Origin: an uncultured Candidatus Peribacteria bacterium
GTDB taxonomy: Bacteria; Patescibacteriota; Gracilibacteria; UBA1369; LOWO2-01-FULL-3
Length of the DNA: 25,096 nucleotides
Reading direction: 5' to 3'
Assembly: GCA_964400435.1 (NCBI GenBank)
Contig: CAYNUR010000002.1
Coordinates: 1-25,096 of the forward strand
Part shown: positions 2 through 22,348 of the stretch, piece by piece
Layout of the letters: each line of letters begins with the position of its first letter
Numbering within the stretch: position 1 is the first letter of the stretch
Notes under the pieces: model-generated
What the model was told of the DNA's origin: nothing
The model's database searches: none
Seen by the model: the letters and a program-made list of their open reading frames with translations, nothing else
Translations under genes and position numbers: made by a program

Positions 2-586
2 TTGGCATCTACAAACGGTACAGACCTTCAAGCAATTATCGACGAGATGAAGTCAGGAAAAATGCCAGGAATCGAACTGTCAGCTGTGATTAGCAATAAA
101 AAATGTTATGCTTTAGAGCGTTCAGAGGCCCAAGGATTCGAAACTTTCTTCATTGATCCAAAAGGAAAAACAAGAGAAGAATTCGATCAAGAAATGATGG
201 AGCTACTAGAAAAAAAAGAAATAGATCTTATCTGCCTCATCGGCTATATGCGAATTTTAAGTGAAAAGTTCGTGAAAAAATTCGAAAACAAAATCATTAA
301 TGTTCATCCTGCTCTAATTCCAAAATATTCTGGGAAAGAATTTTATGGTTCAAATGTTCATCAAGCTGTCTTAGATTCAGGAGACAAAGAAACTGGAATG
401 ACAATACATTTTGTTGATGAAGGAGTAGATACTGGGAAAATAATCATCCAAAAATCTTGCCCAGTAACTCCTGACGATACAATTCAAACCTTAAAAGACA
501 AAGTTCAGACCTTAGAAAAGAAGTGGTATCCAGAGGTAATTAGAATGTTTGCTAAAGGAGAAATAGATCCTAAAGCTTCTTCTTGA
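2..586 (+). CDS. purN: Phosphoribosylglycinamide (GAR) formyltransferase, 5' end truncated by the window edge
   Basis: LASTNGTDLQAII N-terminal loop, LIGYMRILS, catalytic NVHPALIP and GVDTG motifs, G+TIHFVD; first codon TTG is probably internal (Leu). Confidence 0.95.
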   Translation: MASTNGTDLQAIIDEMKSGKMPGIELSAVISNKKCYALERSEAQGFETFFIDPKGKTREEFDQEMMELLEKKEIDLICLIGYMRILSEKFVKKFENKIINVHPALIPKYSGKEFYGSNVHQAVLDSGDKETGMTIHFVDEGVDTGKIIIQKSCPVTPDDTIQTLKDKVQTLEKKWYPEVIRMFAKGEIDPKASS

Positions 587-1877: not shown

Positions 1878-1939
1878 GAGTTTATTTTAATGCCATAAAC
1901 CTCTATAATTTATACACATTTTTCCCTTAAAATAAAGTA

Positions 1940-3127
1940 ATGGAATTCGTTTATCGATTCAGAGCACTTCTAAAAAGTATTAAAGATTCCTGTTTTTCGC
2001 CACTAGCAAAGTTCCTTATCAGGTTTGGAGTTACCTGTAACCACATTACTCTAGTTAGTTTCACCTTTGGAATTTTAGCAGCAATTTTCCTCTCATATAG
2101 TCATCTATTATTTAGCATTTTTATTGCAGTTGCCGTTTTTTTAGATGGCCTAGATGGAGTAATGGCCAGACAAGGAAAACCAAAGGAGATAGGCTGGTTT
2201 TTAGATATGCTCAACGATCGCTTGGTAATGTTTTTCATTCTTGTACAAATCTATTTTAGCCAAAATCTAGATTTAATCACTCTTACTACTATCTCTTATG
2301 CCTTGGTAAAAGGATATTACATTTTTCAAAATACAGTCAGAAAAAAACAATATAATGCAGTTCATTTAGATTTGATTGCCTACATTTTCTTAATTTTTCA
2401 GGAATTCCAACTCGGTATATATTTCGTTTTAGCATCTTTAGCTTTTAATGTTTTGGAATTACTTATTCAAGCCTTAAAAAAGAATAAACAAAAGGCTAAA
2501 AAAGTAGTTAAAAAAGGAGTAACAGAAGTTAAGAATGAAACAACTTATGCAAATTTTATTTCACTATTGAGACCAATCTTAGCAATACTAGCTTTGTACT
2601 TTCTTAATTCACAACCTTATATTCTAGCTGGAACAATAACTATCATCATCCTTCTAGATGCTCTAGATGGTATCGTAGCTAGAAGATCAAAAAAGAAAGG
2701 AAAACATGGTGCTTTCATTGATATTATTGCTGACAGAGCTGTAGAGCTAATAATCCTATATGTTTATGCTTATTGGGGATTAATCACCTATTTATTCCCA
2801 ATAATTTTTACAGTTCGTGGCCTTTCTACAGATTTTCTTAGATTCTTAAATAGAAAGTATCCCGACATAAAATTTAAAGAACCTCTTTCTCTCGGTGGTG
2901 CAGATAATAGGTTTATTAGAGGTTTTTACGGTTTCATCAAGTTAGCTGCATTTTCGCTAATATTAATTCACCAATTATCTGGATTCTGGCTAATGGTCTT
3001 AGCTATTATCCTCAACCTTTATCGTGGTCTACCTGTAATATTTTCAAACAGATCGAAAGTGCTTTTTGCCAAATTTCTTGAAGAAAAAAAGTCCAAGAAA
3101 TCACAAAAAAAGATTCAAAATCCTTAA
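1940..3127 (+). CDS. Membrane protein with two tandem CDP-alcohol phosphatidyltransferase domains
   Basis: Two intact DxxDGxxAR(x7-8)GxxxDxxxD signatures: DGLDGVMARQGKPKEIGWFLDMLND and DALDGIVARRSKKKGKHGAFIDIIAD; each is preceded by an N-x-I-T/S motif and they are joined by a Lys-rich linker. Confidence 0.88.
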   Translation: MEFVYRFRALLKSIKDSCFSPLAKFLIRFGVTCNHITLVSFTFGILAAIFLSYSHLLFSIFIAVAVFLDGLDGVMARQGKPKEIGWFLDMLNDRLVMFFILVQIYFSQNLDLITLTTISYALVKGYYIFQNTVRKKQYNAVHLDLIAYIFLIFQEFQLGIYFVLASLAFNVLELLIQALKKNKQKAKKVVKKGVTEVKNETTYANFISLLRPILAILALYFLNSQPYILAGTITIIILLDALDGIVARRSKKKGKHGAFIDIIADRAVELIILYVYAYWGLITYLFPIIFTVRGLSTDFLRFLNRKYPDIKFKEPLSLGGADNRFIRGFYGFIKLAAFSLILIHQLSGFWLMVLAIILNLYRGLPVIFSNRSKVLFAKFLEEKKSKKSQKKIQNP

Positions 3128-4326
3128 GTGAGAACTTCCAAAAGCCTATCGTGATCAATTCCCTTCCGCACTTCAAGAGCTATTCGATCGCCATAACTCA
3201 AGCTTTCTCCATAAAGATATGAAGTAGCAGGAGTGAAACGTGTTCCTGGTGAACCCGGAATTCTCATACTCACATCGAAGACAACAAATTCCTCTTTTCC
3301 CTTATAAGAAGCCATCGCTCCCTGCAAAGCAAAAGGTCCAATAATTCCTGGATCAACTTCTTTTTTCAAAGTCTCAACAAATTTTTCCCCGGCATTAAAG
3401 GCCTTTTCTAGAATTGATTCTTTTGTCGTACAAGCAATATGTCCAGTTTCTACCATAGAAGGTTTATAGCCTGATTTTAAAAGACCCATTTGAGTCATTG
3501 CATCTAAACGTAAGAATCCATCAAGACTGGTTTGTCTTCTCGTATCAGTTCCCATAATCTCTAGTTCATCATCAATAGGGGAGTAAAAGTAATTAAAATT
3601 AATCTGAGCTCCCAAGACAAATTCTTCAATCACAGACTTATCCAAGTCTTCTTTTAATATTGTTCCATCTTTTATCATTTTTTCACTAGTATCCCAGTAT
3701 TCTTTTTCACTAGTAATAACAAAAAATGCTCTTTCATAACTTCTCTCAGCCTCATTTACTTTGATTATCAGAGGAAATCCTTCTTCACTAAAGTGTTTCT
3801 TCAATACTTCACTTACTTCCTCATCATTCATTCCACTATCTCCTGTCCGAAGAATTTTAGGAGTTCTAATTCCAGCTTTCTCCAGCAAAACATACTGATT
3901 GTTAGGGTGATCTCTTTCCTCTAATTTTACCAATTCTCTACTACCAAAAATCGGCACTTTAAAATTCTTTTCAACCTTCTCAAAATCGCAGTAAACCCAA
4001 AAATATCGATTATGAACGAAAATTGTATTCATTTCACGTAATTTCTTTTGAACATCGTCATTTACAACATCTCCAAACTTATCAACCATGATCACATCAT
4101 CAATACAACCAATTTCACCAGAAATGGAATAACCATCTTTTCTAGTTTTGTAATATTGTGAATAAGTTTTATCTCGACCTTTCTGGCAAACAGCCACCGT
4201 TTTAAAACCAAAATTTTTCGCTCCAGAACAAACATCTAATGCACTGTGACCACCTAGAACACCAATTGTTACATTTTCCATATCATAATCCGAAACTATT
4301 TTTGCAATTTCCTCCTTTGAAATCAT
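3124..4326 (-). CDS. purP: PurP-like ATP-grasp protein (archaeal FAICAR synthetase family, divergent paralogue)
   Basis: MISKEEI..Y...TIGVLGGHSALDV, VAVCQKGR, FNYFYSP..DELE, RRQTSLDGFLRL, GIIGPFALQ, RIALEVRKGI...L.EVLT match the PurP (DUF1246+DUF1297) family; symbol is family-level only. Confidence 0.85.
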   Translation of the reverse strand: MISKEEIAKIVSDYDMENVTIGVLGGHSALDVCSGAKNFGFKTVAVCQKGRDKTYSQYYKTRKDGYSISGEIGCIDDVIMVDKFGDVVNDDVQKKLREMNTIFVHNRYFWVYCDFEKVEKNFKVPIFGSRELVKLEERDHPNNQYVLLEKAGIRTPKILRTGDSGMNDEEVSEVLKKHFSEEGFPLIIKVNEAERSYERAFFVITSEKEYWDTSEKMIKDGTILKEDLDKSVIEEFVLGAQINFNYFYSPIDDELEIMGTDTRRQTSLDGFLRLDAMTQMGLLKSGYKPSMVETGHIACTTKESILEKAFNAGEKFVETLKKEVDPGIIGPFALQGAMASYKGKEEFVVFDVSMRIPGSPGTRFTPATSYLYGESLSYGDRIALEVRKGIDHDRLLEVLT

Positions 4327-4973: not shown

Positions 4974-5996
4974 CTAGCCTAAAACCATTTCTAATTTATC
5001 CTGTTCAATTGCTTCTTTAATATCTCTAGCAATTCTTCGTCCTGTACTCATAGGAACATCATACCTTAGCCAAGAATAAGGTGAACCATTGGTATAAGGA
5101 TTTGTTCCAGCTACAATTCTTGCTGAAATTTCAAAGATATAATAATTCAATTCAGGGTCCACAATTCCTTCTAAACAGAAAGGTCCAAACATCCCATTAT
5201 CAACAAGTTTTCTAGAAGCATCGACTACTTGCTGTCCCATCTCAAAAACAGTTGGCAAAACAGATTCTCTCAAAACAATCGGTACATTTCCAGTGATTGT
5301 ATACGTAGTTCTAATCCCCACATCAACTTGATCTTTAGCAGCGATTCTACCAATAGAATCCGCATTAGACTCATACCTCTTATCAAAGCTCATAATCTCT
5401 AATTCGTCATTCAGTCGACTATAAAAATAATGAGTATAAACTGGAACACCCACAATATATTCTTGAATCGCATAACCAGTCTCATCATCTTCAAACTCTT
5501 TGTACCTCTCATAAAATTCCTTAGTCGAATTCGCTAAGAAATATCCTTGTCCTCCACGTGCACCATGGAATTTAATAATAACAGGTCTATCAATTTCTTC
5601 AGGACTAGCAAAAACCTTAGGAAGTTTAATTCCTGCATCTAAAAGCCATTCTCTTTCTTTTGATCGATCAGATTCCCATTCCAAAATTCCCTTTGTACCA
5701 TAGTGCATAGCTTTCATATCAGTCTTAATCTTCTCAGCACCAAGATAAGCGACAAAAGAACCATGTGGAACAACTATTGCATTTTCATCAACCAGTTGTT
5801 GTTCAATAGAAAAGTAATCTTTAAATTTATCTACTTCAATAATTTTATCTGCAACACCATAGCTTGTGTAAGGCTTAGTTCTACCTTTTTCACAAATAAC
5901 AATAGTTTCAAAGCCTTCATCTTTTGCCCCCTTTAATATTTGAAGAGCGGTATGACTTCCCAGAGTTGCAATTTTAAAATCTTTTACTTTTGTCAT
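4974..5996 (-). CDS. purP: 5-formaminoimidazole-4-carboxamide ribonucleotide (FAICAR) synthetase, formate/ATP-dependent, archaeal type
   Basis: IATLGSHTALQILKGAKDEGF, PHGSFVAYLG, WESDR, IDRPVIIKFHGARGGQGYF, RYESNAD, GPFCLE, FEISARIVAGTN, MSTGRRIAR closely follow canonical PurP. Confidence 0.92.
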   Translation of the reverse strand: MTKVKDFKIATLGSHTALQILKGAKDEGFETIVICEKGRTKPYTSYGVADKIIEVDKFKDYFSIEQQLVDENAIVVPHGSFVAYLGAEKIKTDMKAMHYGTKGILEWESDRSKEREWLLDAGIKLPKVFASPEEIDRPVIIKFHGARGGQGYFLANSTKEFYERYKEFEDDETGYAIQEYIVGVPVYTHYFYSRLNDELEIMSFDKRYESNADSIGRIAAKDQVDVGIRTTYTITGNVPIVLRESVLPTVFEMGQQVVDASRKLVDNGMFGPFCLEGIVDPELNYYIFEISARIVAGTNPYTNGSPYSWLRYDVPMSTGRRIARDIKEAIEQDKLEMVLG

Positions 5997-6056: not shown

Positions 6057-6941
6057 TTAAACAAAGACACTTAACCCCAAAGCAATTAGATAAATTGAGA
6101 AAACTTTTAAACTATGTTTTTTCAAGTAGTTCATAAGGAAAAACACACTTGCAAGGCCAACTAAAAATGCAGAAATAAAGCCAATTCCTAAATTTAAGAA
6201 AGAAACACCAAGTTTACCAGTCTCTGCGACATTTATTCCCGTTAACAGTCCTGCACCAGCTAAGGCAGGAATTCCTAATAAAAAGGAAAACCTCGCAGCA
6301 GTTTCTCTCTTTATTCCTTGAAAAAGACCAGCTACAATTGTTGATCCAGATCTCGAAATTCCTGGAACTAACGCAAAAGCTTGAAATACCCCAATAAGTA
6401 AAGCTTTCCACCACTTCATTCTTCTCAATTCTGCCGGCTCAAAACCACCCGGTTGTAAATAGTCTCTTGCTGTATCAACTTTTTCTTTAACTTTAGTTTT
6501 TACAGAAGTTTTCTTATTTAATCTTTCAAAAGTAAATTCTCCCAATAAAAACAAAATTGCCAAACCAATCATCATTCCACCTACCATTTCCACTTTTCTA
6601 AAATTGCTATCAATCCAGTCTTCCATTGTTAATCCAAAAGCAACAGCTGGCACAGTTCCAATTAAAATATAACCAATCAATTTAGCATAAGGATCATTCC
6701 ATTTTGCCTTACCAGTAAAAAATTTACCAACTTCTTTAAGCATTCCCCAAATATCTTTCCAAAAATAAACTAAAATTGCTAGCAATGTCGCTAGGTGAAC
6801 CATTACATCAAAACTCTTTAAATTTTCAAAATCCAATCCCAAAAAGTCCTCCATTAAAACCAAATGTCCACTTGATGAAATAGGAAGGAACTCAGTTATT
6901 CCTTGTATAACTCCTAAAATCAATGCATCTAACCAAGTCAT
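6057..6941 (-). CDS. uppP: Undecaprenyl-diphosphate phosphatase (BacA/UppP)
   Basis: LGVIQGITEFLPISSSGHL and ALVPGISRSGSTI motifs, AARFSFLL, multiple TM helices. Confidence 0.96.
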   Translation of the reverse strand: MTWLDALILGVIQGITEFLPISSSGHLVLMEDFLGLDFENLKSFDVMVHLATLLAILVYFWKDIWGMLKEVGKFFTGKAKWNDPYAKLIGYILIGTVPAVAFGLTMEDWIDSNFRKVEMVGGMMIGLAILFLLGEFTFERLNKKTSVKTKVKEKVDTARDYLQPGGFEPAELRRMKWWKALLIGVFQAFALVPGISRSGSTIVAGLFQGIKRETAARFSFLLGIPALAGAGLLTGINVAETGKLGVSFLNLGIGFISAFLVGLASVFFLMNYLKKHSLKVFSIYLIALGLSVFV

Positions 6942-7056: not shown

Positions 7057-7125
7057 TAACATGAGTGCAATTCTCAATATCAGAGAAAATTGCGCCCAAA
7101 AATGAAAAGAAATAACAAAAATAAA

Positions 7126-10100
7126 ATGGAAGAACACAAGGATCCTAAACAAAAAGAAGGGACTGATCATCCACTTCACGGTTCTACTCCAGGTTCGCAG
7201 GTGAATAAAAAATCACCCGTAAAAAAATGGGGAATATTTGCTTCAGTTGCAGTTGTAATTGGAGTTGTGGCTTATGTTTTAACAGGGACACAGTTATTCC
7301 AAGGGAATATTAGTGGTCCTTTAGACCAAGCAGGTCCAGATGAAATTATGGATCAGATCTACAATGGTTTTGGTCAAAAAGACCTTAGGTTAAGCTATGA
7401 AACCCTCTCTCAAGTTCAACAAGACGAATACAAGAGTTATTATGATAGCTGGGTACAAGTTGAAGATAGACTTGTGAATGATATTCCAAATTTTGATGCG
7501 CTTGAAGTTGAATTACTCAATACTATTGCAGAAAACTATAAACAAGGTTTTGCAGCCCATCCTGATAAAATCCTAGACTTAGTTCATAGCGATTACGAAC
7601 TTACGATTCAAAATCTTATGAGTCTTTTTGATTTTGCAGTTACTGTTTATAGAGATCCAAATGTAGTTCAAGCAAACGGTGTAAATGTTGATGCATTCTT
7701 TGATAGATATAACGATCAATATTTCAATAATAGAAATGCATCTTTACAATTAAGAACCTATTTTAGAAGTGGATTTTGGGATAATGAGATGGTGACTTTC
7801 TTTGATACATATTTTGACGCAATGTATAACTATGTTGAAGCACTTGCATTTACTACAGTTTCCACAGATGACTCAACAACACCAAATACAGCAGTGATTA
7901 ACGGTGTGATTCCAGCTGCCGAGCAAGCAAGAATTCAGCAATTATTTGATGATGCAATTGCAATTCAACCACAAGGAATGGGATTAAACACACCTCCTTT
8001 TGATATTGATTTACCAATGGAAAGAGATGCGAGTCAGCCTTCAAATATTTGGTATTCACCACTAATAAAAACTCCAACTTTCCCACAAACATGGTTGGAT
8101 GATTTAGTTGCAGATATGCAAGCAAGTTATGATCAAGCAGCAAATGACAGAACAGAACAAGCATTAAGAGATTTAGCAAACCATACCAGAGAATTCGTAA
8201 ATGATGGAAGTGCATGTCACCTAATGTATAACACGGTGAATGATTTAAATAACATGCGTCCTCCAGAAGAAAGAATGGATGTTGTCCTACACGATATTTC
8301 TATACAAGAAAACAGTGGTACAAATATCAGATTAGAAGACACAGACACTAAAGCTTATTTTAAGCTATATGGTCCAGTTAACGGAACAGCAATTCCTACA
8401 ACTCCGGAAAAAGAAGTTTACCAGTACTTAGCAGATAACAATTATGTAGGAGAAGACATTATGATTTTTGCTTCTGGAGATAAAAACAGTCAAGAATCTC
8501 AAGGCCTTGAAGCCTACGAACCTACTGAAAAAATTGAAATTCAAGAAGCACAAAAAGTAATTAATTCAATCAATCAAGCAGATGACATTCAAACTCTTAA
8601 ACAATACGAAAGAGCCTGGGGAGAAGTTATTGTTGAAGGTGAATATAATTCTGGTGAGGTTCTCGGAGATGCTGATTATCAAGTCGTTAACACTTACATC
8701 CAAGAAACCAAAACACAGCAATTTAAAAAATTGATCGAAGGTTATCCAAATCTTTCCGAGTCTCAGTTAAAGGACCTTCTTACATTGATAGATGGAACAG
8801 AAGAGTATTCAACTTTAGAAGAATACAAAGAAATTCTTGATTCAAAAGCTTTCGGACAAGATGAAGTTCCTGGAGTTTACACAACGATAAACGATGCAAT
8901 AATTGATCAACAGGCAGAAGTTAAGAAAATTGAAGCAGTAAAAGTTCAAGAAAACTACTACGAATTTGAACCAGCAAACTTATACTTACAAGATTATCAA
9001 TCTCCTACAAGAGTTGAATCAAGCTTGCCTGGCTCAAACGGAAGAACAGCATATGCCCAAGAAATGAGATCACCGGATGAGGAAAATGAAGATATTCCTG
9101 GAGAAGTTGTGGATGATTCAGGAAATACACCAGTTGATAACCAAGAAACAAATGATGGAGGAAGTGCAGAGGGAACAACGGGAGAAGGATCAACAGAAGG
9201 AGGAACAAATGATGGAGGAAGCGCAGAGGGAACAACCGGAGAAGGATCAACAGAAGGAGGAACAAATGATGGAGGGAGTACAGAAGGATCAACTGGAGGA
9301 GAATCAACAGAAGGTGGAATGACAGAAGGAGGAAGCAATGATGGTTCAACTTTAGAGCAAGCAAATGGTGGACTTGTAATTACAGGAACAAACAATCCAG
9401 AAGCCACGAAAGTAGTTGCAACATCAGCTGATATTACTTTCTACTGTATAGATATCCAAGAGCAACAAGTGCCTCAAGACGGAGAGGATGGAACAGATGG
9501 ATTTAGTTGTTGGGACACAAATCAGAACGGAATGAACGATGATGCAGAAGATGTTAATCAAGATGGAGAGTGGAATACGCTAGACTGCCAAGGAGCAGAT
9601 GGTGCAGATGGGACTGATGGAGGGGATGGACAAGCATGTTGGGATACCAACTCAAACGGAGTACCTGATCCTGAAGAGGATGTAAACAATGACGGTTTAA
9701 TAGATGTTCAAGATTGTCAGGGAGCAGACGGACAAGATGGAACAGATGGATTCAGTTGTTGGGATACAAATCAGAACGGAATGAATGATGATGCAGAAGA
9801 TGTAAATCAAGATGGATTCTGGTCAATACAAGATTGTCAGGGGTCAGATGGGGAAGACGGAACAGATGGATTCAGTTGTTGGGATACAAATCAGAACGGA
9901 ATGAATGATGATGCAGAAGATGTAAATCAAGATGGATTCTGGTCAACACAAGATTGTCAGGGGTCAGATGGAGAAGATGGAGAAGACGGAGTTGACGGAC
10001 AAGATGGAGCAGACGGTCAAGACGGTATTGATGGTCAAGCATGTTGGGATGTCAACAACAATGGAACAAGAGATACAAATGAAGACACAAATGGCGACGG

Positions 10101-11061
10101 AATAGTCGATATCAACGATTGTAGAGGTCAAGATGGAAGAGATGGTTCAGGAATTGGTGGGGGAGAAATATATATTGATATTAACATCGAAGATAATTCA
10201 GTCACTGAAATCAATACAGACCGAATCGTGGATGATTATTTTGGAGGAGGAGCAATCACGAATACAGCAACAAATGAAACAGGAGATGTAAACGTAAATA
10301 ACTACGTAGAAATCATCTCTCAAGATGTGCCAGCAGGCGATCTAGTAGCAGAGATCACAAGTCCAGCAAGAAACAACACAGCACTAGATTTCTTTGAATG
10401 TTTAGATCCAGTAACACCAGTGAGTTTCACAGATATCGCAAATGCCTACTACGCCTACGAGCCAGTACAAACATCAGCAAGACTAGGGTACGAAAACCAA
10501 GCGATTACCATAGGTTACCCACAAGGAGTATCAAGAGTATTCAGAGACAAATCAAACATTACGAGAGCAGAATTGAACAAAATGGTAGCGTTTGCATCAT
10601 GTATCTATCCATACTTTGAACAAGAAGGAATCTATGACGAATTAACAAACAGATTCAATGATAACAGTGCAAATGATTGGTTCTACAGACAAGTGAATGC
10701 GTCAGCAAATGGAGGATTAATCCAAGGATATACAGACGGAACATTCAAGCCAAATCAGCCTATTACGAGAGCAGAAGCAACAAAAATCATAGTAGAAATC
10801 TACTTGAGAATATTCCCAGAGAAACAATTGGGAAGTTGTACGAACTCACCATTTAAAGATGTATTCCCAACAGAGTGGTACTGCGGATATGCAGGAACAG
10901 CCTTCAGAGAAGGGATAGTACTAGGTTCAATCAACTCACAAGGAGATCACTTATTCAGACCAAATGCATCAATAACAAGAGGAGAAGTAGCGGTAATTCT
11001 ATATAACTTCTTCATCACAACCTTACAAAATAGTTTAGAAGACACTTCTCTTTCTAACTAG
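7126..11061 (+). CDS. Large acidic surface protein A: N-terminal TM anchor, Gly/Thr/Glu spacer, five Cys-bounded DxNxDG modules with collagen-like linkers, three C-terminal SLH domains
   Basis: TM WGIFASVAVVIGVVAYVL followed by LFQG; SLH motifs ITRAELNKMV, GYTDGTFKPNQPITRAEA, FRPNASITRGEVA. ORF track starts at TTG 7090; ATG 7126 preferred because its context (AATAACAAAAATAAAATGGAAGAA) mirrors the paralogue's start at 11095. Confidence 0.85.
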   Translation: MEEHKDPKQKEGTDHPLHGSTPGSQVNKKSPVKKWGIFASVAVVIGVVAYVLTGTQLFQGNISGPLDQAGPDEIMDQIYNGFGQKDLRLSYETLSQVQQDEYKSYYDSWVQVEDRLVNDIPNFDALEVELLNTIAENYKQGFAAHPDKILDLVHSDYELTIQNLMSLFDFAVTVYRDPNVVQANGVNVDAFFDRYNDQYFNNRNASLQLRTYFRSGFWDNEMVTFFDTYFDAMYNYVEALAFTTVSTDDSTTPNTAVINGVIPAAEQARIQQLFDDAIAIQPQGMGLNTPPFDIDLPMERDASQPSNIWYSPLIKTPTFPQTWLDDLVADMQASYDQAANDRTEQALRDLANHTREFVNDGSACHLMYNTVNDLNNMRPPEERMDVVLHDISIQENSGTNIRLEDTDTKAYFKLYGPVNGTAIPTTPEKEVYQYLADNNYVGEDIMIFASGDKNSQESQGLEAYEPTEKIEIQEAQKVINSINQADDIQTLKQYERAWGEVIVEGEYNSGEVLGDADYQVVNTYIQETKTQQFKKLIEGYPNLSESQLKDLLTLIDGTEEYSTLEEYKEILDSKAFGQDEVPGVYTTINDAIIDQQAEVKKIEAVKVQENYYEFEPANLYLQDYQSPTRVESSLPGSNGRTAYAQEMRSPDEENEDIPGEVVDDSGNTPVDNQETNDGGSAEGTTGEGSTEGGTNDGGSAEGTTGEGSTEGGTNDGGSTEGSTGGESTEGGMTEGGSNDGSTLEQANGGLVITGTNNPEATKVVATSADITFYCIDIQEQQVPQDGEDGTDGFSCWDTNQNGMNDDAEDVNQDGEWNTLDCQGADGADGTDGGDGQACWDTNSNGVPDPEEDVNNDGLIDVQDCQGADGQDGTDGFSCWDTNQNGMNDDAEDVNQDGFWSIQDCQGSDGEDGTDGFSCWDTNQNGMNDDAEDVNQDGFWSTQDCQGSDGEDGEDGVDGQDGADGQDGIDGQACWDVNNNGTRDTNEDTNGDGIVDINDCRGQDGRDGSGIGGGEIYIDINIEDNSVTEINTDRIVDDYFGGGAITNTATNETGDVNVNNYVEIISQDVPAGDLVAEITSPARNNTALDFFECLDPVTPVSFTDIANAYYAYEPVQTSARLGYENQAITIGYPQGVSRVFRDKSNITRAELNKMVAFASCIYPYFEQEGIYDELTNRFNDNSANDWFYRQVNASANGGLIQGYTDGTFKPNQPITRAEATKIIVEIYLRIFPEKQLGSCTNSPFKDVFPTEWYCGYAGTAFREGIVLGSINSQGDHLFRPNASITRGEVAVILYNFFITTLQNSLEDTSLSN
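9148..9318 (+). repeat. Three tandem 57-bp coding repeats (TNDGGSAEGTTGEGSTEGG)
   Basis: Units at 9148-9204, 9205-9261 (near identical) and 9262-9318 (degenerate). Confidence 0.9.
9478..10146 (+). repeat. Five coding modules C-W-D-x-N-x-N-G...E-D-x-N-x-D-G...D-C separated by G-x-D triplets; includes a near-perfect 120-bp tandem duplication (~9739-9978)
   Basis: Lines 9781-9840 and 9901-9960 differ at one base; the repeated peptide is visible in the translation. Confidence 0.9.
10228..11052 (+). repeat. Direct repeat copy 1 (SLH-encoding 3' cassette), partner at 13585-14409
   Basis: Line-by-line comparison: identical over 10228-10958, then five synonymous mismatches to 11052; offset 3357 bp (duplicated ORFs 10398/13755 have the same offset). 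Confidence 0.95.
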
Positions 11062-11094
11062 TTAAAATAAAAAAATAAAATAACAAAAACAAAA

Positions 11095-14000
11095 ATGGAG
11101 GAAAACAAAAACAATATGCCTGAGGAAAAGGCAACTCCAGCAGAACCAATGCCAGAGATGAATTCTCCTCAGCCAGAACCGCCAAAAAAATCTAACGCAA
11201 TGAAATGGTTTATTGGTATAGCGGTGATTTTAATTCTAGGGATTAGTTCATATTTCCTAGCTACATCAGACTTATTTAGAGGTCAGTTAGTGCTACAAGG
11301 TCCAGATCCTGCAACACCTGAAGAAGAAGGAGCCGCAGATGCTTTTGAAGATCTTTACAGAAATCTATCAAATCGTGATTTTGCAGCAATACTAGAATCA
11401 CTTCCTCAAAGCCAAGATGAAGCTATTAGGACGATTCTTAAAACTCCAACAAAACTATATGAAGATCTTGAAAATCGAACTCAAGTTTCAGGTGAAATCG
11501 AAAAAATTCATGAATTTGTAGCAACGACAAATAGTGCATATGACCAGCATTATGAGAATATTCTAGTTTATTTACCTGAATCCTTCGAGATTGATGGAGA
11601 CGTTTATAATATTCAGCATATTGTTAGGCAGTTAGCTCCAGAAGGTCTAGTCGTAGATGCTCTCACTCTTTCAGCAAACGCAATAGAGTTAATTGTTTTA
11701 ACTCCTGAAGATAATTCACCAGAAATAATCAATACAATCACGAACGATTTTATTGATTTAGCTCATGCAGTAGCAAGAAATGTTCATCAGGTAAGTATTG
11801 CTGATATTGTAGATGCAGATACACAAGCTTGGGCAAATGGAGTTGCAACAGCAATTGAACAAGCTCCAGATTTCTTTGATACCGTTGCAAATGCCGATTT
11901 AATTGATAATTTAAGTTCATCAAACGACTTGGTACAGTTTGTAGTTGAAAACACAGACATAAAAGCCCATCCAATTGGTTTAACTCTTCAAGGTTTTGAA
12001 GGTGATTATTATGATGAAATCTTAACAGACCTAGGTCTGGCTGATGGAGCTACAACAGATTTTATTAAAGTAGAAAATGTTTGGATTCCGGAAGATATGC
12101 ATGCTGGGTTCAATGATGTTATCAGAGAGCTAACTTTAGCAATTGTTCAGGTTCCGGATTATCCAGCTCTTCAACAGGAATCAAACTCACTAGGTTGTGA
12201 TATTAGTCAGTACATTCCTGAGTGCAACGATTTGATCTATGAATATGACCAAAAGCTATGGGAAAGAGGCAATATTGTCGCTTCAGGAGGAGACACTACA
12301 ACAGTTGATCAAGAAATTGCTGAGATTGAAAATGATGCAAATGCAATAAGTTGTACGCTTGTTGATGCACCAGAGTACTGGAGAGAGTGTGAAGATTACT
12401 CACGTGAATATGAACAACTACGAGAACAAAGTGCAGAAATGGCAAACAATGGGCAAGATACAACTACAATAGACAACCAAATTGCCCAACTTACTGATCA
12501 GGCAAGTGCTGAGAAATGTGATCTCGGGGAGCCTCAAAAAAGAAGTTGTGAAGATATTGCTACAGAATATAGAAATGAATCTTTAGCTTCAATAGTAGAA
12601 TATATTATTGATGAAATGAATGCAGCTCCTGCAGATACAGAGTACTATCTTGAACTAGGAAATAAATTAGCTGATGAATTAATCGAGTCAGCAAAACAAT
12701 TTGAAAATACAGGTTATGCTTGCCAATATCTTGCTACATCAGCAAGTGCAGTAGACGGTTTTTTAACAGAGGCATTGGGTACAGAATACACAGATGAATT
12801 TGAATTCATTTACAACCAAAACGACTTCCAAAATGCAGATGTTGATTATGTTAATGGGCTTGAAACAGATAGTGTAGTTGCAGATAACCCAGACTATAAC
12901 GAGGTACTTCACATTACAGGTCCAATTCATGGTGAATATCAAACAGATGCTAACGGTAAGGGAATTTACATTCCAGAAGAAAATTACATTGGAGAAGATA
13001 TGATCTTAGATATTTATGCTAATCCAAATACAGATAGTGGAATCATAGCAGTTAGCTGTACTAACATTCTTCCAGAGTGTTGGGATTCAAATACGAATGG
13101 ACTTAAAGATTCTGACGAAGATTTAAATGAAGACGGAGAAGTTGATGACCTCGATTGTGAAGTTATACCAGAACCACCAGTTGATCCAGTAGTTTCATGT
13201 TATGACACTGACGGTGATGGAGTCTACGAAGTTGGAGACGAAAACAATGACGGAGTAATCGATGAAAATGACTGTGACTACGAAGAACCAACTGAACCAG
13301 AAGCAGCAGAGCCTTCTGAACCACCAGAGTTAGAATGTGAAGATATCAATAATGATGGAGTAATCGATAATACGGATTGTTTCCCTGAAGAAGTAGACAT
13401 AGCTGCATGTTGGGATCTAAACGATAATGGCCAAAGAGATGTCGCAACTGAAGATCAAAATAATGATGGAGTGGTTGATATCAGAGATTGTTCAGGAACA
13501 GGAAGTGGTTTAGGTGGAGCAGATCTATACATCAACATCAATATTGAAGATAACTCCGTAACAGAAATTAATTTAGATGATTTAGTGGATGATTATTTTG
13601 GAGGAGGAGCAATCACGAATACAGCAACAAATGAAACAGGAGATGTAAACGTAAATAACTACGTAGAAATCATCTCTCAAGATGTGCCAGCAGGCGATCT
13701 AGTAGCAGAGATCACAAGTCCAGCAAGAAACAACACAGCACTAGATTTCTTTGAATGTTTAGATCCAGTAACACCAGTGAGTTTCACAGATATCGCAAAT
13801 GCCTACTACGCCTACGAGCCAGTACAAACATCAGCAAGACTAGGGTACGAAAACCAAGCGATTACCATAGGTTACCCACAAGGAGTATCAAGAGTATTCA
13901 GAGACAAATCAAACATTACGAGAGCAGAATTGAACAAAATGGTAGCGTTTGCATCATGTATCTATCCATACTTTGAACAAGAAGGAATCTATGACGAATT

Positions 14001-14415
14001 AACAAACAGATTCAATGATAACAGTGCAAATGATTGGTTCTACAGACAAGTGAATGCGTCAGCAAATGGAGGATTAATCCAAGGATATACAGACGGAACA
14101 TTCAAGCCAAATCAGCCTATTACGAGAGCAGAAGCAACAAAAATCATAGTAGAAATCTACTTGAGAATATTCCCAGAGAAACAATTGGGAAGTTGTACGA
14201 ACTCACCATTTAAAGATGTATTCCCAACAGAGTGGTACTGCGGATATGCAGGAACAGCCTTCAGAGAAGGGATAGTACTAGGTTCAATCAACTCACAAGG
14301 AGATCACTTATTCAGGCCAAATGCATCAATAACAAGGGGAGAAGTAGCAGTAATTCTATATAACTTCTTCATCACAACCTTACAAAATAGTTTAGAAGAT
14401 ACCTCTCTTCAGTAA
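11095..14415 (+). CDS. Large acidic surface protein B, paralogue of A: N-terminal TM, helical Cys-stapled repeats, Cys-bounded DxNxDG modules with Pro/Glu linkers, three SLH domains
   Basis: TM WFIGIAVILILGISSYFL followed by LFRG; C-terminal ~275 aa essentially identical to protein A. Confidence 0.88.
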   Translation: MEENKNNMPEEKATPAEPMPEMNSPQPEPPKKSNAMKWFIGIAVILILGISSYFLATSDLFRGQLVLQGPDPATPEEEGAADAFEDLYRNLSNRDFAAILESLPQSQDEAIRTILKTPTKLYEDLENRTQVSGEIEKIHEFVATTNSAYDQHYENILVYLPESFEIDGDVYNIQHIVRQLAPEGLVVDALTLSANAIELIVLTPEDNSPEIINTITNDFIDLAHAVARNVHQVSIADIVDADTQAWANGVATAIEQAPDFFDTVANADLIDNLSSSNDLVQFVVENTDIKAHPIGLTLQGFEGDYYDEILTDLGLADGATTDFIKVENVWIPEDMHAGFNDVIRELTLAIVQVPDYPALQQESNSLGCDISQYIPECNDLIYEYDQKLWERGNIVASGGDTTTVDQEIAEIENDANAISCTLVDAPEYWRECEDYSREYEQLREQSAEMANNGQDTTTIDNQIAQLTDQASAEKCDLGEPQKRSCEDIATEYRNESLASIVEYIIDEMNAAPADTEYYLELGNKLADELIESAKQFENTGYACQYLATSASAVDGFLTEALGTEYTDEFEFIYNQNDFQNADVDYVNGLETDSVVADNPDYNEVLHITGPIHGEYQTDANGKGIYIPEENYIGEDMILDIYANPNTDSGIIAVSCTNILPECWDSNTNGLKDSDEDLNEDGEVDDLDCEVIPEPPVDPVVSCYDTDGDGVYEVGDENNDGVIDENDCDYEEPTEPEAAEPSEPPELECEDINNDGVIDNTDCFPEEVDIAACWDLNDNGQRDVATEDQNNDGVVDIRDCSGTGSGLGGADLYININIEDNSVTEINLDDLVDDYFGGGAITNTATNETGDVNVNNYVEIISQDVPAGDLVAEITSPARNNTALDFFECLDPVTPVSFTDIANAYYAYEPVQTSARLGYENQAITIGYPQGVSRVFRDKSNITRAELNKMVAFASCIYPYFEQEGIYDELTNRFNDNSANDWFYRQVNASANGGLIQGYTDGTFKPNQPITRAEATKIIVEIYLRIFPEKQLGSCTNSPFKDVFPTEWYCGYAGTAFREGIVLGSINSQGDHLFRPNASITRGEVAVILYNFFITTLQNSLEDTSLQ
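13585..14409 (+). repeat. Direct repeat copy 2 (SLH-encoding 3' cassette), partner at 10228-11052
   Basis: Same comparison as copy 1. Confidence 0.95.
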
Positions 14416-14434: not shown

Positions 14435-14464
14435 AAAAAGAGCCCTAACATTAGGGCTCTTTTT
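14435..14464. terminator. Bidirectional intrinsic terminator
   Basis: Perfect inverted repeat AAAAAGAGCCCTAA-CA-TTAGGGCTCTTTTT between the convergent SLH gene B and purH. Confidence 0.9.
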
Positions 14465-14663: not shown

Positions 14664-16202
14664 CTAATGTCTAAAGTATCTCCTCCCAGAAAACACCATC
14701 GCTAATCCTAACTCGTTAGCTCTTTTTATTACTTCGTCATCTCTAATAGATCCACCTGGTTGAATAATTGAGGTGACACCAAGCTCAGCAGCTTGTTCAA
14801 TTCCATCAGCAAATGGGAAAAATGCATCTGAAGCCATCACAGATCCTGGAATATTCTCTCCTCCCTTTCTGCCAGCAAGCCATACACTATCAACTCTCGA
14901 CATTTGACCCGCACCAATTCCTGTAACAGTTGTACCTTTTGCCATAACAATTGCATTTGATTTGACGTGTTTAGCTACTACGTTGGCAAATAACATAGAT
15001 TTTATTTCTTCTTCACTCGGTTTTTTCTCAGTAACAACTTTTAGATCGCTTTCACTTAACTTATAAGTGTCCTTAGTTTGAATCAAAATTCCACCAGCAA
15101 CTTTTTTGATATCAGTCTTCAAATGATCCAGTTTGAGTTCTCCAGTCCTTAGAATTCTTAAATTCTTTCTTTTCATTAACCTTTCTAGTGCTTTTTTCTC
15201 AAATGAAGGTGCAATAATTATCTCAACAAACATTTTTTCATCATTCATATAGTCAACAATTGCTTCATTTACTTCACGATTGACAGCAATTACACACCCA
15301 AATGCAGATAAAGAATCCACCTTATGCCCAGCTTTAAAAGCTTCTTCAATCGTAGAAGCAGTTGCCACTCCACAAGGGTTATTATGTTTAATAAAAACAG
15401 CTGCAGGCTCCTTGAATTCCTTAGCTAGTTCAAGTGCACTATCTCCATCAACTAAATTATTGAAAGACAATTGTTTACCATGTAACACTTCAGAATTAGT
15501 AATATTAGAGTCATGATTGTCAGGATTTCTAAAGAAAGCAGCTTTTTGATGAGGGTTTTCACCGTATCTTAGGCTCGCAACTTTTTCATAATGTAGACTC
15601 AAAAGTTCAGGTTCACCAAGACTCTCTCGCAAATAGTTTTCTATCATTGAGTCGTACCTTGCGGTGAGCGTAAATGCTTTTCTAGCAAGTTTCTTTCTTG
15701 TTTCAACTGATGTTTCACCATTTTTAGCAATCTCCTTCAAAACCAGTTCGTAGTCATTAGGATCTGTTAGAACAGTGACATGTGCAAAATTCTTTGCTGC
15801 ACTTCTAACCATGCTTGGTCCTCCAATGTCAATGTTTTCAATCGCTTCTTCCTCAGTTACTCCATCTTTTTTAATAGTTTCTTCAAATGGATAAAGGTTA
15901 ACTACAACCATATCAATCATTTGAACGTCATTCTGTTCAGCTGCACCCATATGCGATTGATCATTTCTCAAAGCCAAAATTCCTCCGTGAACCTTTGGAT
16001 GTAAAGTTTTAACTCTTCCTCCCATCATTTCTGGAAATCCAGTGTAGTCTGCAACATCAACCACATTTACTCCAGCCTCACGAATTTTATTTGCAGTACC
16101 ACCTGTTGAGAGAATTTCAATCCCTAAACTATCTATTTTTTTTGCAAGTTCAATAATCCCAGACTTATCTGAGACACTTATTAAAGCACGTTTAATCGCC
16201 AT
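14664..16202 (-). CDS. purH: Bifunctional AICAR transformylase / IMP cyclohydrolase
   Basis: RALISVSDK, GGRVKTLHP, IENIDIGGPSM, LRYGENPHQ, catalytic IKHNNPCG, GAGQMSRVDS, ASDAFFPF, QPGGSIRD, RYFRH. Confidence 0.98.
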   Translation of the reverse strand: MAIKRALISVSDKSGIIELAKKIDSLGIEILSTGGTANKIREAGVNVVDVADYTGFPEMMGGRVKTLHPKVHGGILALRNDQSHMGAAEQNDVQMIDMVVVNLYPFEETIKKDGVTEEEAIENIDIGGPSMVRSAAKNFAHVTVLTDPNDYELVLKEIAKNGETSVETRKKLARKAFTLTARYDSMIENYLRESLGEPELLSLHYEKVASLRYGENPHQKAAFFRNPDNHDSNITNSEVLHGKQLSFNNLVDGDSALELAKEFKEPAAVFIKHNNPCGVATASTIEEAFKAGHKVDSLSAFGCVIAVNREVNEAIVDYMNDEKMFVEIIIAPSFEKKALERLMKRKNLRILRTGELKLDHLKTDIKKVAGGILIQTKDTYKLSESDLKVVTEKKPSEEEIKSMLFANVVAKHVKSNAIVMAKGTTVTGIGAGQMSRVDSVWLAGRKGGENIPGSVMASDAFFPFADGIEQAAELGVTSIIQPGGSIRDDEVIKRANELGLAMVFSGRRYFRH

Positions 16203-19754: not shown

Positions 19755-20309
19755 ATGTTAAAAAAAATAAAAACCAAAATAAAAGATAAGAAAAAGCTTA
19801 AAAAAGCTCGCAAGAACGAGTCAAAAAGCAATTCAACTGCCTTTGATAATGCGGATATAAAATGGACTGCTCCAGAGTATATCAAGCATGAGAAAGGTAA
19901 AGTCTGGTATGCAGTTGCTATTGGAATTACCCTTATTACGGCCATACTTGGAGTTTATTACCAAGCTTGGACTTTTTCACTAGCAATCATCACATTTGCG
20001 ATCGTTTATTACATCGTAAACTTAGAGCACCCTGAAAACATAGACATAAAGGTTTCCAAAATAGGAGTTAAAGTAGGTAACAAGAAGTATTCCTTTGGAG
20101 AAATTCAAAGTTTTTGGATTCTTTATGATCCTCCATATTTGAATACCTTAAACATCAAGATTAAAGATAAATTCCTCACGGATATTGCAATTCAATTAAA
20201 TGACCAAAATCCTGCAGAAGTAAGGGAGTATTTAATTAGAAAAATACCAGAGCTTGAAGGTAAATCTGAACATTTTAGCGACGTGCTATTAAGAATTTTT
20301 AAACTCTAG
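19755..20309 (+). CDS. Hypothetical membrane protein: basic N-terminus, two TM helices, small C-terminal beta-rich (PH-like) domain
   Basis: WTAPEY..HEK...WY before a TM hairpin, then GVKVGNKKYSFGEIQSFWI; resembles a Patescibacteria-conserved family (recalled, not searched); GAGG upstream of ATG. Confidence 0.6.
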   Translation: MLKKIKTKIKDKKKLKKARKNESKSNSTAFDNADIKWTAPEYIKHEKGKVWYAVAIGITLITAILGVYYQAWTFSLAIITFAIVYYIVNLEHPENIDIKVSKIGVKVGNKKYSFGEIQSFWILYDPPYLNTLNIKIKDKFLTDIAIQLNDQNPAEVREYLIRKIPELEGKSEHFSDVLLRIFKL

Positions 20310-20310
20310 A

Positions 20311-21945
20311 ATGACCAATCCAAATAAACCAAAAGCCAGTCCAGAAGCTTCACCTGATGAGAATGTAAATTCTCAGACACCTGCCCTAAAGTCAAATATT
20401 GATGATGAAGTTACAAATGAATTATTGCGTAGCAGTGAAAAAGACGAGCTGCAGGATGAATCTGCATCTGCAGTAGATACTCAAGAAGAAGGCACGATTG
20501 ATAAAGCTAAATTAAAGTTAGTTCATGTTGGTGAAGCCGATAAAATTGTTAGAGACGCAATTGCAAATGCAAGACGATTAAATAATGGAGAGTTAGGAGA
20601 TAAACTAAAATTAGATAAAAATCATCAAAGAGTTGCTCAATCCCTCCCTGAAATAAAATACAAACTAAATTCAAGAGTGAACGATATTGAAGATTATTGG
20701 ATACAAGAATCAGGGAAGCTTGTTGAAAAAATCCAAGAAAAACAAGGAACTCTAGAAGAGCTGATAAATCTAAGAAAATATTGTGAAGAAGAATTAGAGA
20801 AAAATGTAGAAACAATAGCCTTTTTAATTGAAGATATAAGCAATGGTTCATACATTACAGAAGAAATCCTTCTAGAAATGGAGAAACGTTTCGATGAGCT
20901 AGAAGATATTATGACTAGCCAAGCAAACGGAGAACTCAGAGAGACACTGGATTGGGCTATTGGAAACGTAAAAGAAGGAGCAAAGGATAGCCCAGAGTTA
21001 AAATCAAAAAACTTCACTAAGTTATCTAACAATTTGCAAAATCCAAATAGTGAGAAAGCTGAACTTTCTTGGTTTATTTTGAGCAATCTTAGCTACAATC
21101 AAAAAATGGATTTTATTAATTTCCATTTTAAGAGATCTGCTCAAACTAATGCAGAAAGATTGGCATTTCTAGACAGTGGTATCAAAGAAGGCGTAATTCA
21201 TCCTGGAATGGCAGAAATTATCGGAGAAAAGTATGGAGTTTCCATGTCTCAAGACAAGATAAAAAGTTATGAACAGACTTATGAAATGGTTTGGAATACA
21301 AAAAAACAAGCTAAAAAGGTCTTTAAAACAGTATATCTCGGAAAAAATGCAGCCGGAGAAATGATTACAGGTAAAAATGCCGTAAAATTTGCAGTTCAAG
21401 CAGCAGCAACTGCAACACTAGTTGGAAATGTCTTAGTTGCATTTATGGCAAAAAATCCAGAATCAATTGGAACAAATCCATATGTTTATGCCTCAACTGG
21501 AGTATTAGTGGCGACTAGTCAACCGTCCCTTTCTCAGTTCTTTGAGCCAAAAGAGAGCCGTGAACATAACAGGAAAAATCAATTACTAAATGACTTATTG
21601 CACCTAGATCTAGACAGTAGTTTTGCAAGATCAAATGGTTTCTTTGCCTCAAACAAAACACCAAATCTTCATTCATTCAGTGAATTTGTAATCGACATTA
21701 AACAAAAAAATGACGGAAAAATTGTAGATAAAGAAATCACAAAAGATAAATTCTTAAGTTTTTTAAAAGAAAAACCCGCATATTCAAGGTTGATTCCAAG
21801 CTTAGAATCAGCAAGTTTCGATGACAAAAAACTAAAAAACTTTGCTCATATTTTTGAAGAATTCAACATTTATGGCTCAAACCCAAATTTAACAAGAGAA
21901 ACTTACAATAAATATTTAGATCAAGCTAAAGAACAAAACAACTAA
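20311..21945 (+). CDS. Hypothetical protein, largely helical/coiled-coil with two short hydrophobic segments in the C-terminal half
   Basis: 544-codon ORF, 1-bp gaps to both neighbours; no recognisable family. Confidence 0.7.
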   Translation: MTNPNKPKASPEASPDENVNSQTPALKSNIDDEVTNELLRSSEKDELQDESASAVDTQEEGTIDKAKLKLVHVGEADKIVRDAIANARRLNNGELGDKLKLDKNHQRVAQSLPEIKYKLNSRVNDIEDYWIQESGKLVEKIQEKQGTLEELINLRKYCEEELEKNVETIAFLIEDISNGSYITEEILLEMEKRFDELEDIMTSQANGELRETLDWAIGNVKEGAKDSPELKSKNFTKLSNNLQNPNSEKAELSWFILSNLSYNQKMDFINFHFKRSAQTNAERLAFLDSGIKEGVIHPGMAEIIGEKYGVSMSQDKIKSYEQTYEMVWNTKKQAKKVFKTVYLGKNAAGEMITGKNAVKFAVQAAATATLVGNVLVAFMAKNPESIGTNPYVYASTGVLVATSQPSLSQFFEPKESREHNRKNQLLNDLLHLDLDSSFARSNGFFASNKTPNLHSFSEFVIDIKQKNDGKIVDKEITKDKFLSFLKEKPAYSRLIPSLESASFDDKKLKNFAHIFEEFNIYGSNPNLTRETYNKYLDQAKEQNN

Positions 21946-21946
21946 A

Positions 21947-22327
21947 ATGGAAAGAAATAAAAATCTAGAATTACAGGAAAAAGCCATAGAAGAAAAACGT
22001 AAACAGGCTTTTAAAAAAGCAGAGGAAGAAGCTGTAATGGTTCAAAGATTACAGACAGCCCAACTACAACAAGCAGCAGAACAAGAATTACAAAGAAGAA
22101 TAATTGTACAAGCAGCACTACAGAAAGCTCAATTGCAAGCAGCAAAAGCCAAAGCAGCAGAAGATGAAAGAAAAAAGAAAAACCCAGCAAGAAAACTGGC
22201 AAAAAAAGTACTTTGGTGGACAGCAGGAATTCCATCAGGAATGGGAATAATCTCAATTTTGTCTGGAGAACCATCCGTAGAAACAGCAAGTCTACCAATA
22301 GAATTCCTTAAAAATTTCCTAGCTTAA
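21947..22327 (+). CDS. Hypothetical Q/A/K-rich coiled-coil protein with a C-terminal TM segment
   Basis: 126-codon ORF in operon; VLWWTAGIPSGMGIISIL hydrophobic segment. Confidence 0.7.
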   Translation: MERNKNLELQEKAIEEKRKQAFKKAEEEAVMVQRLQTAQLQQAAEQELQRRIIVQAALQKAQLQAAKAKAAEDERKKKNPARKLAKKVLWWTAGIPSGMGIISILSGEPSVETASLPIEFLKNFLA

Positions 22328-22348
22328 AAAAGCAAAATAAAAACCAAA

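Follow-up and report, generated by a model that had tools for sequence, protein, structure and literature searches.

How do two adjacent genes whose products have for the most part drifted far apart come to share 731 nucleotides (nt) without a single mismatch? The question is raised by a 25,096-nt stretch of DNA from an uncultured Candidatus Peribacteria bacterium (NCBI assembly GCA_964400435.1, contig CAYNUR010000002.1, positions 1 to 25,096 of the forward strand), which at its full length is referred to here as the window. Two forward-strand genes within it, gene A (7126-11061) and gene B (11095-14415), appear to encode membrane-anchored, cysteine-rich surface proteins with a predicted C-terminal wall anchor built of three S-layer homology (SLH) motifs, and the shared sequence lies in the part of each gene that codes for this anchor cassette. 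Ectopic (interlocus) gene conversion of the 3ʹ SLH cassette, acting on an old tandem pair, is the best explanation for the pattern and a probable one.

Identity and silent-site divergence across the pair

The identical tract occupies 10228-10958 in gene A and recurs on the same strand at 13585-14315 in gene B, at a constant offset of 3357 nt; both a repeat search and a base-by-base comparison give 731 nt with 0 mismatches. Encoded within it are a pre-SLH linker of ~65 amino acids (aa), SLH1, SLH2 and the start of SLH3. On the 3ʹ side, mismatches resume at 10959, 10980, 10992, 11043 and 11046, all five of which are synonymous third-position changes by codon-by-codon comparison, and homology between the genes stops at 11053, from which point the sequences are unrelated. 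On the 5ʹ side, the flank at 10144-10227 (forward strand) is homologous to and in register with 13501-13584, and nucleotide identity between A and B upstream of 10228 is ~60-70%. This flank holds the peptide YI(D/N)INIEDNSVTEIN (codons 10171-10215), in which 14 of the 15 residues are common to both proteins and 10 of those 14 differ in codon. Because the residues are conserved upstream of the boundary while their codons differ, the 5ʹ edge marks a discontinuity at the level of DNA and not the limit of a region under selection. Direct comparison therefore bears out what a first-pass annotation had read from the letters, namely the 731-nt identity, the five synonymous mismatches at these positions and the conserved upstream peptide with 10 of 14 codons changed, and the DNA-level break, across which the peptide is conserved, agrees with its claim of an SLH cassette homogenised recently with a sharp 5ʹ edge.

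The 731-nt identity is present in the window and lies far beyond chance. The gapless homologous block spans 909 nt and contains 36 mismatches; the probability that these leave an uninterrupted stretch of 731 nt or longer is <= 1e-24, and the same run statistic applied to third positions alone gives P <= 7e-17. By the Nei-Gojobori method, the proportion of synonymous sites that differ (pS) is 0.92 in the 5ʹ flank, which is saturated, and the corresponding nonsynonymous proportion (pN) is 0.21. Within the tract, which comprises 243 codons and ~160 synonymous sites, there are 0 differences and synonymous divergence (dS) is 0. In the 3ʹ segment (10957-11052), pS is 0.22, dS is 0.26 and nonsynonymous divergence (dN) is 0. 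This windowed profile, which the first-pass annotation had called for, amounts to a deficit of silent change in the tract relative to the flanks on both sides. Had silent changes built up in the tract only at the low 3ʹ rate, ~35 of them should be present, and the probability of finding none is 5e-18. Synonymous differences cannot be removed by selection acting on the protein.

Elsewhere the two products differ strongly. Amino-acid identity between A and B starts at 25% (first 170 residues, E 1e-11), is 34-37% in a series of Cys-bounded repeats, rises to ~90% in the linker and reaches 100% in the cassette. Judged from this alignment, A and B are old tandem paralogues along their whole length. 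That the duplication is old, as had also been proposed at the outset, follows from the 25-37% identity outside the cassette and from the synonymous saturation that extends up to 10227.

Probable gene conversion of the SLH cassette

In the proposed course of events, a single fast-evolving SLH surface-protein gene located between bacA and purH would have been duplicated in tandem long ago, giving rise to A and B. RecA-type homologous recombination between the co-oriented copies, either within one chromosome or between sister chromosomes, would then have copied the 3ʹ part of one gene non-reciprocally onto the other, a form of concerted evolution. The last such event would have spanned ~630-730 nt, covering the pre-SLH linker, SLH1, SLH2 and the start of SLH3, with its 5ʹ end at 10228. 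Upstream of this position the copies, at ~60-70% nucleotide identity, would be too diverged for strand exchange, so that the edge would be self-reinforcing. The remaining 94 nt of the cassette (10959-11052, forward strand, with its partner at 14316-14409), which contain the five synonymous differences, would represent an older layer with ~5% synonymous divergence, as expected if few conversion tracts extend all the way to where the homology stops; this layer would measure 196 nt if a polymorphic patch described below is a real difference between the copies. The outcome would be a pair of proteins that keep the same cell-wall anchor while their passengers are free to diverge, and identical anchors might in themselves carry some selective benefit.

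At least two conversion events, or layers, of different age appear to be present (dS 0, then ~0.26), and they lend modest support to the word "recurrent" that the first-pass annotation had used for the recombination. Its description of a constant anchor on variable passengers is right as to architecture, with just two copies on record to illustrate it.

Surface proteins with a predicted wall anchor

Read from ATG 7126, gene A encodes a predicted surface protein of 1311 aa, and gene B, its tandem paralogue with the same architecture, encodes one of 1106 aa. The layout of A consists of an N-terminal transmembrane helix (7228-7287), an orphan passenger, a G/S/T/E-rich tandem repeat, Cys-bounded acidic repeats (9508-10122, five units) and the C-terminal cassette of three SLH motifs. 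In gene B, the N-terminal transmembrane helix is at 11206-11262 and the Cys-bounded repeats, with at least three units, are at 13078-13491, all of these features being on the forward strand. In both proteins an LF(Q/R)G motif follows the transmembrane helix. The Cys-bounded repeats take the form CWDxNxNGxxDxxEDxNxDGxxDxxDC; Pfam and NCBIfam give EF-hand and dockerin matches to them only below threshold, and calcium binding is suggested at the level of the motif. The passengers of A and B have no family match in either database. The reading frame of gene A is open from TTG 7090, and the public gene call starts at ATG 7102. The likely start is instead ATG 7126 (MEEHKD...), because the N-termini of the family begin with MEE or MEN and B aligns from residue 9 of A.

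Hallmarks of SLH proteins are binding to a pyruvylated secondary cell-wall polymer and the presence of csaB in the genome; no csaB was found among the genes of the 25-kb window, the one contig of this genome examined. The SLH nature of the cassette is evident from the motifs themselves. In copy 1, SLH1 lies at 10426-10596, SLH2 at 10654-10803 and SLH3 starts at 10852, all on the forward strand, and only the start of SLH3 falls within the identical tract. Pfam family PF00395 (SLH) matches A and B with E-values of 3e-19 and 1e-19, with two stretches above threshold in each protein, and the third motif of both was recognised by alignment and coordinates. Inspection of the sequence finds a TRAE-type motif in each repeat (ITRAEL, ITRAEA and ITRGEV in SLH1-3). 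The closest solved structure to the cassette is the SLH domain of Bacillus anthracis Sap, 3PYW (phmmer E 4.8e-9).

A single gene in related genomes

The purH gene of the window is 70-77% identical to purH of Candidatus Peribacteria metagenome-assembled genomes (MAGs). Four independent relatives, compared at this locus (L001, L082, L083/L084 and L085/L086), keep the gene order bacA, SLH gene, purH, yidD, LysM/M23, rpsF and ssb, and in each of them the interval from bacA to purH contains one SLH gene (603, 726, 925 and 937 aa). These genes share an architecture made up of an MEE.. N-terminus, a transmembrane helix with an LFxG motif, DNDGDG-type Cys repeats and an end composed of three SLH motifs. 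Their cassettes are only 24-49% identical to the window cassette and their passengers are essentially unalignable, and gene B shows weak N-terminal and passenger similarity to this single-copy gene. Because the relatives carry only one such gene between bacA and purH, the tandem pair is lineage-specific, situated at a conserved site of a hypervariable surface protein. In Peribacteria, large Cys-rich extracellular proteins are reported as a main source of strain variation, and the genomes encode recA and the Ruv pathway (PMC4736985).

Further copies were sought in several collections. An exhaustive HMMER scan of 1.84 billion representative proteins found the cassette only in A and B, with a next best match that was 51% identical. 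A word-index search of 5.8 billion proteins returned no orthologue of A or B, and B had matches only at the SLH level. This search missed even the paralogue within the window, despite ~275 identical residues, and its matches seemed confined to ~0.55-1.75 times the query length; the statement that there is no third copy and no close homologue is based on the exhaustive scan alone. Scanning JGI metagenomes with either the cassette or an alignment of two sequences gave no match, and a genome-contig scan with purH retrieved one of the relatives (L001) but no close strain. In the protein and metagenome searches, no genome carrying both copies was found besides the pair itself. Look-ups of the exact A and B proteins in public assemblies returned nothing for the NCBI version. 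A and B each belong to a 90% cluster with one other member, which comes from a twin of the scaffold in ENA.

Two public versions of the scaffold

This second public version (ENA ERZ23499406, SUHA22-1_SAMN20336538_METAG-scaffold_545) is also 25,096 nt long; the window is the NCBI version. In a whole-scaffold comparison, the two differ at 11 of 25,096 positions, which are 4378; 10857, 10869, 10871, 10872 and 10875; and the same five again within 14214-14232. The five substitutions make up a 19-nt polymorphic patch at the start of SLH3 (10857-10875, forward strand) with two haplotypes, and its twin in copy 2 (14214-14232, forward strand) undergoes the same five substitutions between versions. The window haplotype is AAA..CCA ACA GAG (Thr) and that of ENA is AAG..CCG AAT GAA (Asn), which corresponds to four third-position changes and one Thr/Asn change, and 84 nt separate the patch from 10959, the next variant. 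Both versions hold the 731-nt identical tract, with different patch haplotypes that are each alike in both copies.

The internal sequence of the "perfect" tract is consequently consensus-dependent. The absence of any mismatch, as first claimed, holds for the window and depends on the assembly, given that the two depositions differ by the same five-nucleotide patch in both copies. This uncertainty affects at most a few positions and the conversion signal stays: the run retains P <= 5e-20 if the 19-nt patch is counted as a difference. As a matter of caution, disagreement between two public versions inside a "perfect" repeat means that repeat-internal variants in MAGs need read-level phasing before they are given a biological reading.

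The sole version difference outside the repeat is at 4378, where NCBI has C and ENA has A. The ENA allele creates a stop that shortens an HD-domain protein from 180 to 175 aa, and a protein look-up gave no record of the 180-aa form. Independent Logan k=31 unitigs from SRR15216810, presumably the run of SAMN20336538, agree with the window at every base over 12.6 kb and stop where a fork into the cassette is predicted. One of these unitigs (L088) has an end exactly 30 nt (k-1) ahead of 14400, where a B-specific variant lies, and another (L090) starts at 4379 and ends in the internal tandem repeat of gene A; the two show no other breaks in 12.6 kb. Since L090 starts at 4379, position 4378 is a branch point, and both alleles are in the read set.

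Alternative explanations

Several points weigh against gene conversion of the cassette as set out above. The two public versions carry different 19-nt patch haplotypes that are the same in both copies each time, and part of the identity might stem from repeat collapse or bubble-popping during assembly. Relatives with both copies, which a comparison of paralogues with orthologues or of tract boundaries in sister strains would call for, were not found in the searches described. Recurrence, in turn, is drawn from two small layers, the older with 5 differences in 94 nt.

The alternative that survives best, possible although short of likely, is that the identity is in part a consensus artefact. The copies would truly differ at the 19-nt patch and maybe at a few other sites, with one haplotype per copy. 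During assembly, the shared cassette would have formed one de Bruijn node that was crossed twice, and the patch a closed bubble that was popped to a single haplotype and written twice. The mismatch-free tract would in that case shrink to 629 nt (10228-10856) and give way to a layer of 196 nt with 10 differences (5.1%), and the near-identity would still be due to gene conversion. Consistent with such an origin, 10 of the 11 version differences are the same five substitutions in both copies, and the patch, with its four third-position changes and one replacement, looks like paralogue divergence. The 3ʹ variants that were retained each lie <= 51 nt from the next variant or from unique flank, whereas the patch is isolated by 84 nt, and the records contain no third copy of the cassette from which such reads might have come. 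However, if one version is a read-mapping-polished derivative of the other, as their shared length and ends suggest, polishing should have given the copies different haplotypes, through reads spanning the patch and 10959 and through pairs to the unique flanks. What is seen instead is a joint flip of the two copies, accompanied by the unlinked polymorphic site 4378.

This joint flip is what would be seen if the sample contained two very close strains, each with both copies homogenised to its own patch haplotype, a somewhat doubtful alternative. The patch, probably a short recombination import, would have moved between A and B after the strains split. In both versions A equals B across the tract while the versions differ, and 4378 branches in the raw-read unitig graph, which means that strain polymorphism exists in this read set; the two loci also flip together. 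However, both an import and a transfer from one copy to the other, each a rare event, would be needed within a divergence of ~1 single-nucleotide polymorphism (SNP) per >12 kb, and bubble-popping explains the data equally well if the versions are independent assemblies. The relation between the versions therefore matters. Two strains are favoured by the joint flip of 4378 and both patches if the NCBI sequence was derived from the ENA scaffold by read-polishing; for independent assemblies, a consensus that masks a difference between the copies is no less likely. Were the two-strain account true, it would amount to ongoing concerted evolution in a natural population of Candidate Phyla Radiation (CPR) bacteria, with conversion faster than point mutation, and it would give a direct handle on the rate of conversion versus mutation (a 5-substitution patch set against ~1 SNP per >10 kb).

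Another reading, and an unlikely one, holds that the cassette was replaced only once, as a domain swap, and that the 3ʹ differences arose later or came from a mosaic donor. There is a single sharp 5ʹ junction, there are two copies only, and the age layers rest on few sites, all of which would suit a one-off replacement. The distribution of silent differences argues otherwise, with all five in the last 94 nt and 0 in the preceding 731 nt, where ~35 would be expected (P = 5e-18). In addition, the stepwise rise in amino-acid identity, from 25% to 35%, ~90% and 100%, suggests an earlier and longer homogenisation.

The first-pass annotation went further in proposing that crossover between the copies would excise or amplify 3357 bp and switch the displayed repertoire. 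The identical anchor would in that case act as a recombination handle for programmed surface variation, by which passengers are switched, deleted or amplified, and this is very improbable. The geometry is as described, in that direct repeats 3357 nt apart would allow deletion or amplification. Relatives carry one gene at the locus, and the surface proteins of Peribacteria vary between strains (PMC4736985). The switching of a repertoire, by contrast, is unsupported. A and B are both complete and co-oriented, with start codons, N-terminal transmembrane signals and a 33-nt spacer between them, and a crossover would do no more than remove B or add a second B. The 25-kb contig contains neither silent nor promoterless cassettes, and the exhaustive scan gave no third copy. 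Inverted repeats around a promoter or invertible element were likewise absent: the repeat search turned up just two inverted pairs of 31 nt, a chance level, and among all the genes called in the contig none carries a Pfam label of a recombinase or invertase. Public assembly look-ups, the exhaustive scan and the JGI metagenome scans yielded no deletion, amplification or other variant arrangement. With neither one expression site accompanied by silent donors nor an invertible element found, a programmed switch was rejected. Crossover between the direct repeats is ordinary repeat instability, in which the B passenger is deleted or duplicated.

Nucleotide-level selection on an embedded RNA or DNA element, or extreme codon bias, found no support and is effectively refuted, given that the adjoining and equally conserved peptide is synonymously saturated, that the last 94 nt of the same domain accept synonymous change, and that the orthologous cassettes of the relatives are only 24-49% identical at the protein level. 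The idea that two strain alleles were misassembled into a false tandem was also rejected: the junction between the 3ʹ end of A and the 5ʹ end of B (11053-11095) is unique and can be spanned by single reads, and A and B have distinct 3ʹ ends.

Comparison with known systems

Interlocus gene conversion and concerted evolution are known in bacterial paralogues, for example tufA and tufB in Salmonella and duplicated surface-protein genes, and a review by Santoyo and Romero is reportedly part of the literature on bacterial gene conversion. Gene conversion of the SLH cassette would resemble such cases in its contiguous tract of near-zero divergence, silent sites included, which lies inside old paralogues and ends where homology is poor, and, as in the tuf type, the recombination would be RecA-type and non-reciprocal. 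Unlike tuf-type conversion, only the C-terminal anchor is homogenised here, the host is a CPR bacterium and the exact content of the tract is assembly-uncertain. The process itself is already known, and no new mechanism is revealed. The pair would be a new example of it, with concerted evolution of an SLH anchor in tandem orphan surface proteins of a CPR bacterium.

The sapA homologues of Campylobacter fetus share a conserved 5ʹ region that encodes their anchor. Exchange among the sap homologues is frequent (PMC3887049). As in A and B, a constant surface-binding module is combined with variable remainders, and the identical module offers a substrate for recombination. However, C. fetus has 8-9 homologues served by one promoter on an invertible element, its module is N-terminal and binds lipopolysaccharide, and the result is true phase and antigenic variation, whereas the window contains two complete, co-oriented genes with a C-terminal SLH module and no invertible element. 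The slpA and slpB genes of Lactobacillus acidophilus offer a closer match in the placement of the module, with an identical C-terminal cell-wall-binding third and divergent N-terminal parts. These genes lie in opposite orientation, are swapped by chromosomal inversion, and one of them is silent; A and B, in contrast, form direct repeats and both look expressible.

Three tandem SLH motifs with a TRAE-type motif are also found in Sap and EA1 of B. anthracis (PDB 3PYW, 6BT4), and sap-eag, like the present pair, consists of adjacent paralogues sharing an SLH module. Unlike Sap and EA1, A and B have the SLH module at the C-terminus and keep an N-terminal transmembrane helix, their identity to Sap is low (E 5e-9), and their host is a CPR bacterium. 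Closer to hand are the proteins of Candidatus Peribacter riflensis, a member of the same phylum, which are likewise large, exported and Cys-containing and are encoded in genomes with recA and ruv (PMC4736985). A tandem pair with a homogenised SLH cassette is not described in that report, and A and B have no detectable orthologues.

If gene conversion is indeed responsible, the pair is a natural case in which recombination holds a wall anchor constant while the exposed parts of the proteins evolve beyond recognition. Both the envelope biology and the recombination dynamics of this CPR lineage, the Peribacteria, are known almost only from metagenomes. In the comparison with relatives, the bacA-purH site also stands out as a conserved hot spot for a hypervariable SLH surface protein.

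Other features of the pair and its neighbourhood

The spacer between A and B (11062-11094, forward strand) is 33 nt long and A-rich, with a weak promoter-like match only, and a scan found no terminator-like site in it. Sequence inspection revealed a GC-rich hairpin at 14439-14460, with runs of A and T on its flanks, between the convergent B and purH; the terminator scan did not report it, and it is likely to be a bidirectional terminator. Because the spacer is only 33 nt long and has no terminator, and a hairpin follows B, the two genes are probably co-transcribed as one transcription unit. The A-rich stretch that precedes 7126 resembles this spacer (AAATAACAAAAA[T/C]AAAATGGA; compared in windows 7090-7135 and 11062-11104). 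The resemblance, weak in a sequence of such low complexity, hints at the edge of the duplication unit.

Gene A also contains internal tandem repeats, one at 9147-9319 (57 nt x 3, 90% identity, G/S/T/E-rich) and another at 9709-9981 (120 nt x 2.3, 94%). The Cys-bounded units at 9757-9837 and 9877-9957 are nearly identical, and from this it follows that intragenic homogenisation or slippage occurs in gene A.

An N-terminal module is common to the whole family and consists of an MEE start, a basic stretch, a transmembrane helix and an (S/T)xxLF(K/R/Q)G motif just outside the membrane. It is represented at 7228-7300 and 11206-11275 in the window and in P0128, P0147, P0148, P0174, P0175, P0178 and P0223. 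The (S/T)xxLF(K/R/Q)G module may act as a processing or sorting signal in SLH-anchored proteins.

Further downstream, 19755-24709 contains four co-oriented open reading frames (ORFs; 184, 544, 126 and 786 aa) with no Pfam match. The block is syntenic downstream of rpsF-ssb in two of the relatives (L083 and L085), and its 786-aa product is a predicted multi-pass membrane protein; the block looks like a conserved Peribacteria module without an assigned function.

A purine-synthesis neighbourhood is spread over 2-586, 3124-4326, 4974-5996 and 14664-16202. It comprises a purN-like formyltransferase gene, two paralogous archaeal-type purP-like genes (DUF1246/DUF1297) that flank the HD-domain gene, and purH, and it agrees with the reported nucleotide-synthesis capacity of Peribacteria. 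The SLH pair is flanked as well by envelope-related genes (570-3127 and 6057-6941), which include a GMPPB-like sugar-nucleotidyltransferase, a two-domain CDP-alcohol phosphatidyltransferase ORF of 395 aa, and bacA, the gene for undecaprenyl-diphosphatase.

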